Positions 35,748-45,181 of a stretch of 64,000 nucleotides of DNA are shown here, piece by piece (position 1 is the stretch's first letter; each line of letters opens with the position of its first letter). The DNA is from Escherichia coli (GTDB taxonomy: Bacteria; Pseudomonadota; Gammaproteobacteria; Enterobacterales; Enterobacteriaceae): assembly GCF_002854065.1 (NCBI RefSeq), contig NZ_CP024147.1. One strand, written 5' to 3'. A model generated the notes under the pieces. The model was not told the DNA's origin. It did no database searches and saw nothing but the letters and a program-made list of their open reading frames with translations. The translations under genes were made by a program, and so were the position numbers.

Positions 35748-36830
35748 TTAGAACTGGTAAACCATACCTACAGCAACGATATCATCGGTAGCAACGCCAG
35801 ATGCTTTCGTGAAATCGCTCTTATCAATCAGGTTGATTTTGTAGTCAACAAAAGTGGACATATTTTTGTTGAAGTAATAGGTTGCACCTACATCAACATA
35901 TTCAACCAGGTCCTGATCACCCCAAACACCCAAGTCTTTTCCTTTAGAATGCAGGTAAGCAACGGATGGACGCAGGCCGAAGTCGAACTGATATTGTGCA
36001 ACAGCTTCGAAGTTTTGTGCTTTGTTGGCAATATGGTTATTACCAAAAACAGTCATGTTCTGGGTTTCAGAATAGGTGGTGGCCAGATAGATGTTGTTCG
36101 CATCATATTTCAGACCAGCTGCCCATACTTCAGCATTTTGACCAGAAGCATTCAGACCGTTGTTACCGTAGATAACCTGATTATTAGTGCGATCAGATTT
36201 AGCATAGGTTGCACCCACGCCGAATCCTTCATACTCATAAGTAGTTGAGAAACCGAAACCATCGCCATTAGCTTCAGTTACTTCATTTCGGTCATTTTTG
36301 CCCTGATACTGAGCTGCAAAGTTCAGGCCATCAACCAGACCAAAGAAGTCGTTGTTACGATAAGTTGCAACACCTGTGGTGCGACCAGTCATGAACACAT
36401 CTGTTTGGGTCCAGGTATCGCCACCGAATTCTGGCAGAACGTCAGTCCACGCACCGATGTCGTATGCTACACCGTAGTTACGGCCGTAATCGATTGAGCC
36501 GTAGTCACCGAATTTCAGGCCAGCGAAGGCAAGACGGGTTTTATCTTTGGAGGAACCTTGAGATTCAGCGCGGTTGCCTTTGAATTCATATTCCCACTGA
36601 CCGAAACCAGTCAGTTGATCGTTGATTTGGGTTTCACCTTTGAAGCCAAGACGGGCATAAGTAGTATCACCATCATCTGCATCATTAGAGGAGAAGTAGT
36701 GCTTAGCATTAACTTTCCCGTACAGATCCAGCTTGTTACTGTCTTTATTATAAATTTCAGCTGCCTGAGCAGACATCGCCATCAGTACTGATGCAGCTAC
36801 AGCAGAAATTGCCACTGTTAATTTTTTCAT
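35748..36830 (-). CDS. nmpC: OmpC/OmpF-family outer membrane porin, intact
   Basis: 360-aa ORF with signal peptide [23 protein letters not shown] and C-terminal ...VYQF; recognised as NmpC. Confidence 0.9.
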
Positions 36831-37403: not shown

Positions 37404-37619
37404 ATGAAATCCATGGATAAGTTAACAACGGGTGTCGCCTATGGCACCTCAGCAGGTAGTGCCGGGTACTGGTTTTTACAGCTGCTCGATAAAGTCACGC
37501 CCTCACAGTGGGCAGCAATAGGTGTGCTGGGTAGCCTGGTATTTGGCCTGCTGACGTACCTGACAAACCTTTATTTCAAGATTAAAGAAGATAAGCGCAA
37601 GGCTGCGAGAGGTGAATAA
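37404..37619 (+). CDS. essD: class II holin (phage 21 S-like)
   Basis: 71-aa ORF with two TM segments and charged C-terminus. Confidence 0.85.
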
Positions 37620-38116
37620 TGCCTCCATCATTACGAAAAGCTGTTGCTGCTGCTATTGGTGGCGGGGCTATTGCTATAGCATCTGTGTTAATCACTGGCC
37701 CAAGTGGTAACGATGGTCTGGAAGGTGTGAGACATAATCCTTACAAAGACATAGTTGGTGTATGGACTGTATGTTACGGGCATACAGGAAAAGACATCAT
37801 TCCCGGTAAAACGTATACCGAAGCAGAGTGCAAAGCCCTCCTGAATAAAGACCTTGCCACTGTCGCCAGACAAATTAACCGGTACATCAAAGTCGATATA
37901 CCGGAAACAACGCGCGGCGCTCTTTACTCGTTCGTCTACAACGTGGGTGCTGGCAATTTCAGAACATCGACGCTTCTTCGCAAAATAAACCAGGGTGATA
38001 TTAAAGGCGCATGTGATCAGCTACGGCGCTGGACATACGCTGGCGGTAATCAATGGAAAGGACTGATGACTCGCCGTGAGATTGAGCGTGAAGTCTGTTT
38101 GTGGGGGAAACAATGA
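37619..38116 (+). CDS. rrrD: phage lysozyme (endolysin)
   Basis: 165-aa ORF with T4-lysozyme-like motifs; ATG overlaps holin stop. Confidence 0.9.
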
Positions 38117-38571
38117 GCAGAGTAACCGCGATTATCTCCGCTCTGGTTATCTGCATCATCGTCTGCCTGTCATTGGCTGTTAATCATTACCGTGATAACG
38201 CAATCGCCTACAAAGAGCAGCGCGATAACAAGGCCAGTGAACTGGAGAAGGCGAACGCCACCATCGCTGACATGCGGAAGCGTCAACGTGATGTAGCAGA
38301 ACTCGACGCAAGATACACAAAGGAGCTTGCTGATGCTAACGCGACTATCGAAAGTCTCCGTGCTGATGTTTCTGCTGGGCGTAAGCGCCTGCAAGTCGCC
38401 GCCACCTGTGCAAAGTCAACGACCGGAGCCAGCGGCATGGGCGATGGAGAAAGCCCAGGACTTACAGCAGATGCTGAACTCAATTATTACCGTCTCCGAA
38501 GTGGAATCGACAAGATAACCGCGCAGGTTAACTACCTGCAGGAATACATCAGGACGCAATGCCTGAAATAA
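38113..38571 (+). CDS. rzpD: i-spanin Rz
   Basis: 153 aa from [17 protein letters not shown]; N-terminal TM then coiled coil; lambda Rz-like. Confidence 0.85.
38327..38518 (+). CDS. rzoD: o-spanin Rz1 lipoprotein embedded in +1 frame of Rz
   Basis: 63-aa ORF with lipobox LLGVSAC and proline-rich region, nested in Rz. Confidence 0.6.
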
Positions 38572-38603
38572 TTTTTTTGCAAATCACAAAGTCCATTTAA
38601 TGA

Positions 38604-38627
38604 GCCTCGCGATGCGGGGCTTTTTTT
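38604..38627 (+). terminator. rho-independent terminator after lysis cassette
   Basis: GCCTCGC-gat-GCGGGGC hairpin followed by TTTTTTT. Confidence 0.55.
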
Positions 38628-38866
38628 ACATCTGAATTTCACAGCGCATCTCACGCGCATATTACATCACCCGAGCCTTTCAGAAAGTTGAGCCTGAGAA
38701 CTGCCGTATATGGTGGCGACCATCTCGGGGCGGCTTTTCTGTGAGACAGGCTCACTTTCTAAAAGGTAAAGACGCTATGAACCAATTAGAAGAAAAGCTT
38801 CAAAGAATGATTTCCTTATACAAGGAAGATAACTGCCAAAAAGTTCCTTAAAACATCGCAGAGTTA

Positions 38867-39265
38867 ATGGAATTGGCAAGTGAATTTTCTGGCATGCTTA
38901 AGTCGTCAGGTGTTCGGTCAGCGTTCTTTGTTGAAATGCTGATGCACGGCGGACTTATGGCAACAATGAGACGTGTAATGGAAGACCAGAGAAAAGAACC
39001 TCCTCAGGTATACGTTTTGTCATCGAAGAAAACTGGGCTAACCAAAATTGGGTATTCATCCAACATTCCACAACGCATCAAATCGCTTGGCAACTCTGGA
39101 CCAGACTGCTTGAAGCTTGAGTGCCTGATCCCTGGTGGAAGAGAAACTGAAAACATGCTTCATCGCAAATTTGCCGCAAAGAGAAAGCACGGTGAATGGT
39201 TCGCCCTGTCCAAGGATGACATTGAGGGATTGAAATCTGTAGCGATTACTTCTGATGGCTATTAA
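38867..39265 (+). CDS. T5orf172/GIY-YIG-like domain protein
   Basis: 132-aa ORF; motif VYVL..TGLTKIGYS..RIKSL...HRKF...HGEWFAL; in frame with a 24-codon upstream ORF separated by one TAA. Confidence 0.45.
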   Translation: MELASEFSGMLKSSGVRSAFFVEMLMHGGLMATMRRVMEDQRKEPPQVYVLSSKKTGLTKIGYSSNIPQRIKSLGNSGPDCLKLECLIPGGRETENMLHRKFAAKRKHGEWFALSKDDIEGLKSVAITSDGY

Positions 39266-39943
39266 TGCTTGTTTAGAGCAATTTTCATAACAACTCTTCA
39301 TTACAAAGCCCATCTACTGGTGGGCTTGATAATGAAACCGTGATTTACATCCCCACAATCCGGGTATGTAAAAGATAGTTCAGGCGAGAACGGATTTAAC
39401 TAAATCTGTGCGCCACCAGTTAACGGCAGTACCACGAAACAACCCAAGCCAGTAAGTGGGGAAATAACACCGGCAGCCACTGAAAGATGAACCTCCTGCC
39501 TTATGGCAAAAAAGATTCTTTGTGGTGGCGGACTGATGGAAAGACATCCTAATTTCAGCCAAACATTGAAGGAGTTGTTATGTCAGCAGAAGGTTTCAAT
39601 AACCCATCAAAATTCCGGGATGAGTGGGATAGCAGCGTAAAGAGTAAGTGATGCCATCACAAAAGCCATTCCCTACAGAGTGGCTTTGATAATGGCTTAT
39701 ACCCTACACGGGATAACTTAACTGATATCCTTTTTAAAGGATAAAGGTATTCAAGCCTGACACATCATGCGCTGTATCGTCGCCGTATTCCCGTATTAAC
39801 AGAGACCGTAGCCCGACGGGGAACTCCTTCTGCGCGAGTGTGCGGGAATAATCAAAAACGATGCACACCGGGGTTACCGGGTACACATATTTCATCATGC
39901 CAGCGAGTCCGGTTCTGGCACGGAAGAAACCGGACGTTATGAT

Positions 39944-40354
39944 TTAGTGCGGAAATATTTGTGTAGTGTTCTGAATGTTCTCAGTAAAGAGTAATGAATT
40001 ATCAAAGGTATAGTAATACCTTTTGTTTTCGTGGATATTTGTAATCCATCTGAAAACCCCTGCTGTAGCAAGATTTTTCCTGTATTCGTAAAATGATAAC
40101 TCTCCTGATTTGAATCCTTTTAATGTGGTTTCTATAAGGCATTTATTTTTTGAAAATCTTACATTTACAACCTTACCCTGTCCTTTTATTAAAACCGTAT
40201 TATCGTTTTCAAGAACAAGATGAATATTCTCTGTGGCTAAATAGTAAATGTAATGTGAGACATTGTGACGTTTTAGTTCAGAATAAAACCAGTGATAGTT
40301 TAAATTATTTCGCACTTTATCGAATATTTGTTTAAAAATGGCAACCTGAGCCAT
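39944..40354 (-). CDS. ybcV: prophage protein YbcV-like
   Basis: 136 aa from [14 protein letters not shown]; recognised tentatively. Confidence 0.55.
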
Positions 40355-41033: not shown

Positions 41034-41858
41034 ATGGAAGTCAACAAAAAGCAGCTGGCTGACATTTTCGGTGCGAGTATCCGTACCATTCAGAACTGGC
41101 AGGAACAGGGAATGCCCGTTCTGCGAGGCGGTGGCAAGGGTAATGAGGTGCTTTATGACTCTGCCGCCGTTATAAGATGGTATGCCGAAAGGGATGCTGA
41201 AATTGAGAACGAAAAGCTGCGCCGGGAAGTTGAAGAACTGCGGCAGGCCAGCGAGACAGATCTCCAGCCAGGGACTATTGAGTACGAACGCCATCGACTT
41301 ACGCGTGCGCAGGCCGACGCACAGGAGCTGAAAAATGCCAGAGACTCCGCTGAAGTGGTGGAAACCGCATTCTGTACTTTCGTGCTGTCGCGGATCGCAG
41401 GTGAAATTGCCAGTATTCTCGACGGGATCCCCCTGTCGGTGCAGCGGCGTTTCCCGAACGGCACGGTCGATGTGTTCCGCGGCTGGGTCAGCAGTATCGG
41501 TAAGGCGGTGACGGCGAAGGAAGTGATTACCCGCACGGTGAAAGTCACCAACGTAGGACGTCCGTCGATGGCAGAAGATCGCAGCACGGTAACAGCGGCA
41601 ACCGGCATGACCGTGACGCCTGCCAGCACCTCGGTGGTGAAAGGGCAGAGCACGACGCTGACCGTGGCATTCCAGCCGGAAGGCGCAACCGACAAGAGCT
41701 TCCGTGCGGTGTCTGCGGATAAAACAAAAGCCACCGTGTCGGTCAGTGGTATGACCATCACCGTGAAAGGTGTTGCTGCAGGCAAGGTCAACATTCCGGT
41801 CGTATCCGGTAATGGTGAGTTTGCTGCGGTTGCAGAAATCAACGTCACCGCCAGTTAA
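41034..41858 (+). CDS. nohD: terminase small subunit Nu1 N-terminal 141 aa fused to tail tube V-like Ig (Big_2) C-terminal domain
   Basis: First 141 aa match lambda Nu1 ([30 protein letters not shown]...); remainder matches C-terminus of lambda gpV ending VTAS. Confidence 0.85.
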
Positions 41859-43598: not shown

Positions 43599-43852
43599 AT
43601 GCTGCCGCAGCATAGCGATATTGAAATAGCCTGGTATGCTTCAATACAGCAGGAGCCGAATGGCTGGAAGACCGTCACCACACAGTTCTACATCCAAGAA
43701 TTCAGTGAGTATATTGCGCCACTGCAGGATGCTGTAGATCTGGAAATCGCAACGGAGGAAGAAAGATCGTTGCTGGAAGCCTGAAAAAAGTATCGGGTGC
43801 TGCTAAACCGTGTGGACACTTCCGTAGCACCAGATATCGAGTGGCTTATTCA
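43599..43852 (+). pseudogene. tfaX: tail fiber assembly gene remnant truncated by IS1
   Basis: C-terminal Tfa-like segment with internal TGA, duplicate of tfaD 3' end, interrupted by IS1. Confidence 0.6.
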
Positions 43853-43907
43853 GGTGATGCTGCCAACTTACTGATTTAGTGTATGATGGTGTTTTTGAGG
43901 TGCTCCA

Positions 43908-44183
43908 GTGGCTTCTGTTTCTATCAGCTGTCCCTCCTGTTCAGCTACTGACGGGGTGGTGCGTAACGGCAAAAGCACTGCCGGACATCAGCGCTATCTC
44001 TGCTCTCACTGCCGTAAAACATGGCAACTGCAGTTCACTTACACCGCTTCTCAACCCGGTACGCACCAGAAAATCATTGATATGGCCATGAATGGCGTTG
44101 GATGCCGGGCAACCGCCCGCATTATGGGCGTTGGCCTCAACACGATTTTCCGCCATTTAAAAAACTCAGGCCGCAGTCGGTAA
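43908..44183 (+). CDS. insA: IS1 InsA
   Basis: 91-aa [33 protein letters not shown]. Confidence 0.9.
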
Positions 44184-44605
44184 CCTCGCGCATACAGCCG
44201 GGCAGTGACGTCATCGTCTGCGCGGAAATGGACGAACAGTGGGGATACGTCGGGGCTAAATCGCGCCAGCGCTGGCTGTTTTACGCGTATGACAGTCTCC
44301 GGAAGACGGTTGTTGCGCACGTATTCGGTGAACGCACTATGGCGACGCTGGGGCGTCTTATGAGCCTGCTGTCACCCTTTGACGTGGTGATATGGATGAC
44401 GGATGGCTGGCCGCTGTATGAATCCCGCCTGAAGGGAAAGCTGCACGTAATCAGCAAGCGATATACGCAGCGAATTGAGCGGCATAACCTGAATCTGAGG
44501 CAGCACCTGGCACGGCTGGGACGGAAGTCGCTGTCGTTCTCAAAATCGGTGGAGCTGCATGACAAAGTCATCGGGCATTATCTGAACATAAAACACTATC
44601 AATAA
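44102..44605 (+). CDS. insB: IS1 InsB (expressed as InsAB' by -1 frameshift)
   Basis: 167-aa ORF in -1 frame relative to insA; A6C slippery motif at 44159-44165. Confidence 0.85.
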
Positions 44606-45181
44606 GTTGGAGTCATTACCGCTTATTCAACCATAATAAACAGTATGTATATCATAGGTTATTAATTGTGAGTTTTTTCGGTGTGTTATTTGTTTGTTTG
44701 ATGTTATGCTTTTGCGCCCCAAAAGGTTGTTTAGATGTATTTTATCAATTGATTTTCAATATCGTTTAATAAAGAAAAATTAAGCAAGCTGGATGTTGGT
44801 TTTTTGTTAATTGAATGGTTCTAATAATGTTTTTTTACTGTTGTTGAATGTGACTTGATAAGAAATGCAAGTAAAAATGATACTCTTTTTATTTTAAATT
44901 CAAACGGTTGACATATATATAGCAAGAGGTTTCAGGTGCGTTGTAGTGAGTTTATGTTAATAAAAAGTATAGTAAGCGTTGAAAAATGTAACTTTGAAAT
45001 ACGTTAGAATAAAAAACAATATACATATAATAATTTAATCTTAAATGAAATTTATTAAAATTTGCAAACTATAATTTTGTGTATAAAAATATAAATGCAC
45101 ATCATCCTGATTATGATTGTGTATTTAATTGGTTGTTATTTGACTGCTATCAACTTGTTTTAATTTTATGATAGGTGCAAG

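Follow-up and report, generated by a model that had tools for sequence, protein, structure and literature searches.

A premature TAA codon in the T5orf172-type gene downstream of Rz/Rz1 in an Escherichia coli DLP12 prophage

The window analysed here is a stretch of 64,000 nucleotides of Escherichia coli DNA (contig NZ_CP024147.1 of assembly GCF_002854065.1) carrying what is identified, from its neighbouring genes, as the DLP12 cryptic prophage. Directly downstream of the lysis genes Rz (38101-38571) and Rz1 (38327-38518) lies a gene for a protein with a T5orf172-type domain of the GIY-YIG superfamily, in which a single in-frame stop codon separates two open reading frames (ORFs). As read from the sequence and the six-frame ORF list, an ATG at 38777 on the plus strand starts 24 sense codons, MNQLEEKLQRMISLYKEDNCQKVP, which are followed by a premature TAA (38849-38851), by five in-frame sense codons, NIAEL (38852-38866), and by a second ATG at 38867 that starts an ORF of 132 residues ending with the TAA at 39263-39265. 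The 24-codon and 132-residue ORFs lie in one common frame. Both this arrangement and the position after Rz/Rz1 agree with a preliminary description made from the letters of this DNA alone. The features of the gene are as follows.

38777..38848, plus strand: codons 1-24 of the ancestral 162-codon gene, identical to codons 1-24 of WP_016245257.1 and of HK106 gp64
38777..38848, plus strand: region encoding the first helix of the N-terminal domain in the predicted model and the beginning of the second
38849..38851, plus strand: premature stop TAA, ancestral codon GAA (Glu25); the sole change with respect to strain 214-4 over 528 nucleotides
38852..38866, plus strand: codons 26-30 (NIAEL), now untranslated, read directly from the sequence
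5-7 nucleotides 5' of the ATG at 38867, plus strand: weak GAG resembling a Shine-Dalgarno sequence, read directly from the sequence
38867..39265, plus strand: remaining 132-codon ORF, Met31-Tyr162 and stop, annotated by the Prokaryotic Genome Annotation Pipeline (PGAP) as GIY-YIG nuclease family protein WP_000417740.1
39002..39241, plus strand: T5orf172/MUG113 (GIY-YIG superfamily) domain, residues ~76-155, with invariant Y79, K90-I-G92, R100, E125 and H129 and a nearly invariant E140
39306..39327, plus strand: 7-bp hairpin, AAGCCCA / TGGGCTT, without a T-run, 41 nucleotides 3' of the stop; read directly, significance uncertain and not called in the terminator scan

In strain 214-4 the corresponding 528 nucleotides differ from the window at one base, 38849, where G stands in place of T and makes the codon GAA (Glu25) instead of the stop, and the annotation of that strain has a 489-nucleotide coding sequence for a protein of 162 residues, WP_016245257.1, to which the restored window protein is identical. 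The restored protein also matches PHROG 4284 from residue 1 to residue 162 (E 8.9e-88). Since one restored base yields both this end-to-end match and identity to a RefSeq protein, a chance arrangement of two ORFs is ruled out. The full 162 residues are encoded in the viable lambdoid phages HK106 (gp64, YP_007151734.1, 99.4% identity) and Chlobot (100%), so that uninterrupted orthologues, for which a comparison had been proposed, are found in phages as well as in strain 214-4, and the suggested ancestral gene of about 162 codons is supported. HK106 gp64, WP_016245257.1 and PHROG 4284 represent the same gene as that of the window, with 99.4-100% amino acid identity across all 162 residues when the stop is reverted, and the HK106 gene shares with it the leader and the place after Rz and its terminator. 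In contrast to HK106 gp64, the window copy has TAA for Glu25, keeps an ORF for residues 31-162 only, and lies in a defective prophage rather than in a viable phage. The 13 aligned members of the family, which come from E. coli, Salmonella, Klebsiella and metagenomic sources, go down to 35-50% identity, and all have about 160-163 residues. Across them the first 30 residues are conserved, with Glu25 nearly invariant, which is the opposite of a family whose members begin at the downstream ATG. One intact copy of the 162-residue gene (hit H147) was met on NZ_OY754386.1, a 42,747-bp record classed as a plasmid, which may instead be the genome of a lambdoid phage in circularised or episomal form.

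A 71-nucleotide probe centred on the TAA found the site in 81 complete E. coli genomes, two of which match the window exactly while 79 differ. Within a spread sample of 60 of these 81 genomes, 41 are 100% identical to the GAA allele over all 489 nucleotides. Measured against a conserved orthologue of full length, which most genomes carry undamaged, the gene of the window thus stops too early, as expected of a pseudogene. Together, the allele counts, the phage copies, the conservation of the N-terminus and the position of the start codon indicate that the stop is a mutation of a longer gene. Programmed read-through of the TAA was considered and rejected, as 79 of the 81 genomes are without the window's version and the aligned allele encodes Glu. 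The family itself is already annotated, with RefSeq accessions for the 162- and 132-residue forms, a PHROG entry and a phage sequenced from 2012-era collections.

The assignment of the native start depends on the sequence between Rz and the gene, which contains three features.

38602..38630, plus strand: Rho-independent terminator hairpin and T-run directly after Rz, with a 9-pair stem (6 GC pairs) followed by TTTTTTT
38631..38776, plus strand: conserved leader; a second hairpin, followed by a U-rich tail, lies at about 38706-38739
38762-38766, plus strand: AAAGG resembling a Shine-Dalgarno sequence, 10 nucleotides before the ATG at 38777

HK106 and epsilon34 have the element at 38602..38630 annotated as a terminator, and the alignment shows it to be conserved. 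The roughly 200 nucleotides from the Rz stop to ATGAA (38777-38781) are about 85% conserved in the window, HK106, epsilon34 and phi80, and the similarity ends abruptly after ATGAA at 38781. The ATG of phi80 equivalent to 38777 is the annotated start of a Rha-family gene, and the last 41 nucleotides of the leader are common to about 560 E. coli genomes, where they stand ahead of Rha or KilA-N genes. With the leader conserved and a Rha gene starting at the same ATG, 38777 is therefore taken as the native start and the GTG at 38741 as part of the leader. That GTG, from which some gene callers derive 174-residue products, was rejected as a start on the ground that it falls within the leader of Rha genes annotated from the ATG. 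The leader, from 38572 to 38781, has the appearance of a fixed 'socket' for exchangeable cassettes, with the GIY-YIG gene, a divergent GIY-YIG allele or Rha found downstream. The predicted RNA fold of 38596-38790, a stretch that includes the terminator hairpin, has a z score of -4.05, and an Rfam search of 38400-40000 gave no credible family, the single match being a chance one to a microRNA (E 0.13). A simple promoter scan of 38450-39500 found no sigma-70-like site. Given also that the gene lies on the same strand as the lysis genes and after the terminator, it would appear to be expressed late.

The 132-residue product matches two Pfam profiles of the GIY-YIG clan, MUG113 (PF13455, E 4.6e-14, residues 60-121) and T5orf172 (PF10544, E 9.6e-10, residues 48-120), whereas the canonical GIY-YIG profile PF01541 reaches only 0.18. 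The T5orf172-type motif pointed out earlier is therefore substantiated by significant matches in the profile search that had been proposed with it. An AlphaFold model computed from the family alignment (mean predicted local distance difference test score, pLDDT, 87.6) has helices at residues 3-20, 23-43 and 49-71 with pLDDT values of 87-94, followed by a predicted beta-beta-alpha-beta-alpha domain with the GIY-YIG alpha/beta fold. The residues invariant in the 13 family members (Y79, K90-I91-G92, R100, E125 and H129, with E140 nearly so) would fit the GIY, YIG, Arg and Glu motif positions by their spacing and the secondary structure; their equivalence to Y6, Y17, R27 and E75 of I-TevI is likewise based on motif spacing and secondary structure rather than on a residue-level structural alignment. 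The two parts of the protein differ in charge, the N-terminal domain (residues 1-74) being acidic across the family with an isoelectric point of 4.6-5.4 while that of the nuclease domain is 9.4. No Pfam or NCBIfam match was obtained for residues 1-74, the NCBIfam search being without any hit, and a profile of this domain run against 1.84 billion representative proteins returned only six proteins, four of them family members or fragments already seen and two of them short fragments, with no fusion to another domain. Solved structures, searched by sequence with the full-length profile and with the domain profile, returned nothing. The N-terminal domain could have a role in oligomerisation, partner binding or autoinhibition.

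T5orf172 has been treated as a subfamily of GIY-YIG (PMC8263062, PMC10448857). Odn (Gp88) of phage ICP1 has demonstrated nuclease activity, for which the conserved Glu is required (PMC8263062), and T5orf172 genes have been proposed to be homing endonucleases at genetic-exchange boundaries, often near terminase genes (PMC10448857). Odn and the family described here are alike in having a C-terminal T5orf172 domain with the conserved Arg and Glu (PMC10448857, PMC8263062), and in having neither His nor Tyr in the first helix after the Arg (PMC8263062). Both the putative T5orf172 homing endonucleases with Odn and the window family sit at the boundary of an exchangeable phage module near the terminase end. 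The former, however, carry Zn-finger (CapR, DUF723, DUF4397) or RepA_N domains where the window family has only its acidic three-helix domain. The intact protein is most likely a late-expressed DNA endonuclease in which an acidic, orphan three-helix domain precedes the T5orf172 domain.

The gene has been broken in other ways in other strains. GDSC2227PM (locus L003) carries the same TAA together with a 403-bp deletion, equivalent to 39032-39434 of the window and flanked by two copies of an 8-nucleotide microhomology, by which the nuclease core is lost. The annotation has no gene at this place, and all that is left of DLP12 in this strain is a fragment of the integrase, fused next to the Rz gene. 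Four further independent lesions within the first 30 codons, at loci L010, L013, L016 and L017, also lead to the exact 132-residue product with its ORF intact in every case: a change of Glu17 to TAA, the loss of 4 bp near codon 17, the loss of 1 bp immediately ahead of Met31 and an insertion of IS66. A look-up by the exact 132-residue product favours such N-terminal lesions, and breaks are found elsewhere in the gene too, namely one junction after Asp70, one after Ser83 and a stop at residue 151. Among the complete genomes, FCI56 has an insertion of 1 bp and BKQ37E a gene truncated at its 3' end, and at least 4 of the 81 (about 5%) hold broken copies. Together these lesions have the look of a dispensable gene decaying at scattered points in a dead prophage.

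The explanation that best accounts for the locus, and which we hold to be likely, is a G-to-T nonsense mutation in an HK106-gp64-type gene of DLP12 that has probably inactivated it, the intact form being a putative endonuclease. The gene is a lambdoid accessory gene set between the S-R-Rz/Rz1 lysis cassette and the DUF1398/YlcI/terminase end of DLP12, and its ancestral 162-residue product combines the acidic three-helix domain (residues 1-74), peculiar to this small family, with a basic T5orf172-type GIY-YIG domain at about 76-155. In a live phage it would be transcribed late, once Q-modified polymerase passes the terminator after Rz, and translated from the conserved AAAGG-N10-ATG, and its product may act as a metal-dependent DNA endonuclease in phage-phage or phage-host DNA conflict, in the manner of a homing or exclusion nuclease. 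With the single change of Glu25 from GAA to TAA, translation from 38777 ends after 24 residues. At best, re-initiation 15 nucleotides downstream at Met31 would give a 132-residue protein without helix 1 and one third of helix 2, in which the N-terminal domain is probably misfolded while the nuclease domain is intact, and the truncation would be expected to abolish the nuclease function. Because the lost segment is conserved, one lineage with the TAA has deleted the nuclease core and the prophage is defective, the gene is most likely inactivated or strongly attenuated. The broken gene fits neutral decay in a prophage that has already lost its head genes. Of the earlier proposal of inactivation by a nonsense mutation, the premature stop against a conserved orthologue stands, and the loss of the product would follow unless translation resumes at Met31.

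Several observations weigh against this account. A start codon stands only 15 nucleotides past the TAA with its weak GAG upstream, and some truncated, possibly active protein may be made from it. The 132-residue ORF is undamaged, keeps the whole nuclease domain and is annotated by PGAP as a normal gene and not as a pseudogene. As to the function of the intact protein, no DNA-binding or specificity domain joined to the nuclease domain can be recognised, unlike in most T5orf172 homing endonucleases, so that the combination that marks a free-standing homing endonuclease, a nuclease with a recognisable DNA-binding domain, is absent. A promoter scan of the simple kind used leaves room for an independent promoter. 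We know of no nuclease activity, target or phenotype for any member of the PHROG 4284 family, and of no homing by the window protein.

The points concerning the 132-residue ORF could also mean that it is functional by itself, made from Met31 by termination and re-initiation, with the first 30 residues dispensable or regulatory. Besides the intact ORF with its full T5orf172 domain, the nearby ATG at 38867 and the PGAP call, the exact product is recorded on 116 contigs and arises through at least five independent upstream lesions, every one of which leaves the ORF untouched. However, looking up the exact product selects for just such lesions, lesions occur elsewhere in the gene as well, and one carrier of the TAA went on to delete the nuclease core. 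The segment lost is moreover conserved and forms helix 1 of a confidently predicted three-helix bundle, the rest of which is likely to misfold. A functional 132-residue protein is therefore regarded as unlikely.

It seems similarly improbable that the intact protein is not a nuclease at all, being either a domesticated T5orf172 DNA-binding regulator, such as CapR of PLE, or a defence or exclusion factor expressed from the prophage. The PADLOC candidate PDC-S57 was matched at E 7e-6, over profile positions 3-83 of 212, the region of the shared nuclease domain. This covers only 81 of the 212 positions and falls short of a full-length match. For the defence part of the earlier reading, this domain-level match is slight support. 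The invariance of Y79, R100 and E125 in the family argues for retained catalysis, the promoter scan found no promoter-like site for expression in the lysogen, and the orientation and position of the gene fit a late transcript.

Much more doubtful is the idea that the N-terminal lesions (Glu25 and Glu17 to TAA, the 4-bp and 1-bp deletions and IS66) have been selected rather than being neutral. If this were true, the acidic N-terminal bundle would be a regulatory or autoinhibitory module, or the part by which the full-length protein becomes costly, and its loss would leave a tolerated or differently active stand-alone T5orf172 nuclease, re-initiated at Met31. The present data do not separate selection on loss of the N-terminus from the ascertainment bias of the look-up.

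At least seven independent assemblies from NCBI and ENA carry the TAA, two complete genomes among them, and it is for this reason a real, segregating, rare allele and not an error, so that the re-sequencing proposed earlier is not called for. A sequencing or assembly mistake in a gene that is intact in this strain, to which the single-base difference from the common allele might have pointed, is extremely improbable given those assemblies and the long-standing RefSeq accession of the 132-residue protein itself. The window is identical to the draft assembly JJLU01000022.1 over 6.4 kb, and its best match among complete genomes, strain 100416, has 4 differences in 11 kb and is without one IS1. 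The TAA is found in prophages that keep nohD and the large terminase gene (L011) and also in those with the fusion of Nu1 to a tail protein seen in the window (L009, L012 and L014), and the nonsense mutation therefore predates the deletion that made this fusion or has moved by recombination.

The prophage genes around the slot are listed here.

35748-36830, minus strand: OmpC-like porin (nmpC/ompC-like, 360 residues), intact
37404-37619, upstream: holin EssD
37619-38116, upstream: lysozyme RrrD
38101-38571, upstream: Rz
38327-38518, upstream: Rz1, embedded
Downstream: DUF1398 (ybcV-like) and YlcI/YnfO genes, both on the minus strand, followed by the Nu1 homologue

It is on these neighbours that the identification as DLP12 is based, and a near-identical RefSeq genome annotates intD, rusA, quuD, essD and rrrD in the same order. 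The DLP12 porin gene, intact in the window, is interrupted by IS5 in K-12. The ORF of 274 residues at 41034-41858 on the plus strand joins the N-terminus of Nu1 in frame to a Phage_TTP_12/Big_2 domain (the C-terminal Ig-like domain of a major tail protein), which implies that DLP12 has lost a large internal stretch with its head and proximal tail genes; the prophage of the window is defective, its head genes being lost. Further along lies an IS1 of 768 bp (43853-44620) with ORFs for InsA (91 residues) and InsB (167 residues) and 23-nucleotide terminal inverted repeats. It is flanked by a 9-bp target-site duplication, GCTTATTCA, at 43844-43852 and 44621-44629, and its site is empty in the otherwise 99.97%-identical strain 100416.

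The contents of the slot vary among related elements, with the 162-residue gene family in HK106, a divergent allele in epsilon34, Rha in phi80 and bor in K-12, and its boundaries are sharp, at 38781 and about 39414. The gene of Salmonella phage epsilon34 (gp68; gp64 in g341c) is a divergent allele of the same family, coding for 161 residues with 33% identity over residues 28-153. It occupies the same slot with the same upstream leader and conserved downstream flank, but its gene body has no detectable nucleotide similarity to that of the window and the host phage is P22-like. In the DLP12 of K-12 the place between Rz/Rz1 (rzpD/rzoD) and ybcV is taken by BorD, the counterpart of lambda Bor, which is unrelated to the window gene and lies on the opposite strand. 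No Bor-like lipoprotein signal peptide had been noted at this position, and across the whole window a tblastn search with K-12 BorD gave no homologue (best E 4.6). Between the nuclease gene and the DUF1398 gene are 678 nucleotides (39266-39943) without an annotated gene, and within them two blocks, 39414-39548 and 39678-39745, have 90-96% identity with intergenic stretches of epsilon34 and HK106.

The allele with the TAA is rare and pseudogenising and belongs to a phage gene that is known and uncharacterised; it is a minor variant in the course of ordinary decay in a dead prophage. It means that WP_000417740.1, the 132-residue protein called by PGAP, is an N-terminally truncated remnant of a 162-residue phage protein, and it adds one more decaying accessory gene to DLP12, which on its own carries little weight. 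The suitable object for study is the intact gene of HK106 and not the broken copy of the window. The family offers a compact T5orf172 protein with an orphan N-terminal domain, placed where lambdoid phages have a mosaic junction with sharp limits, and as such it could be a small model for asking if nucleases of the T5orf172 type mark the boundaries of recombination in temperate coliphages, as has been proposed for ICP1-like phages.
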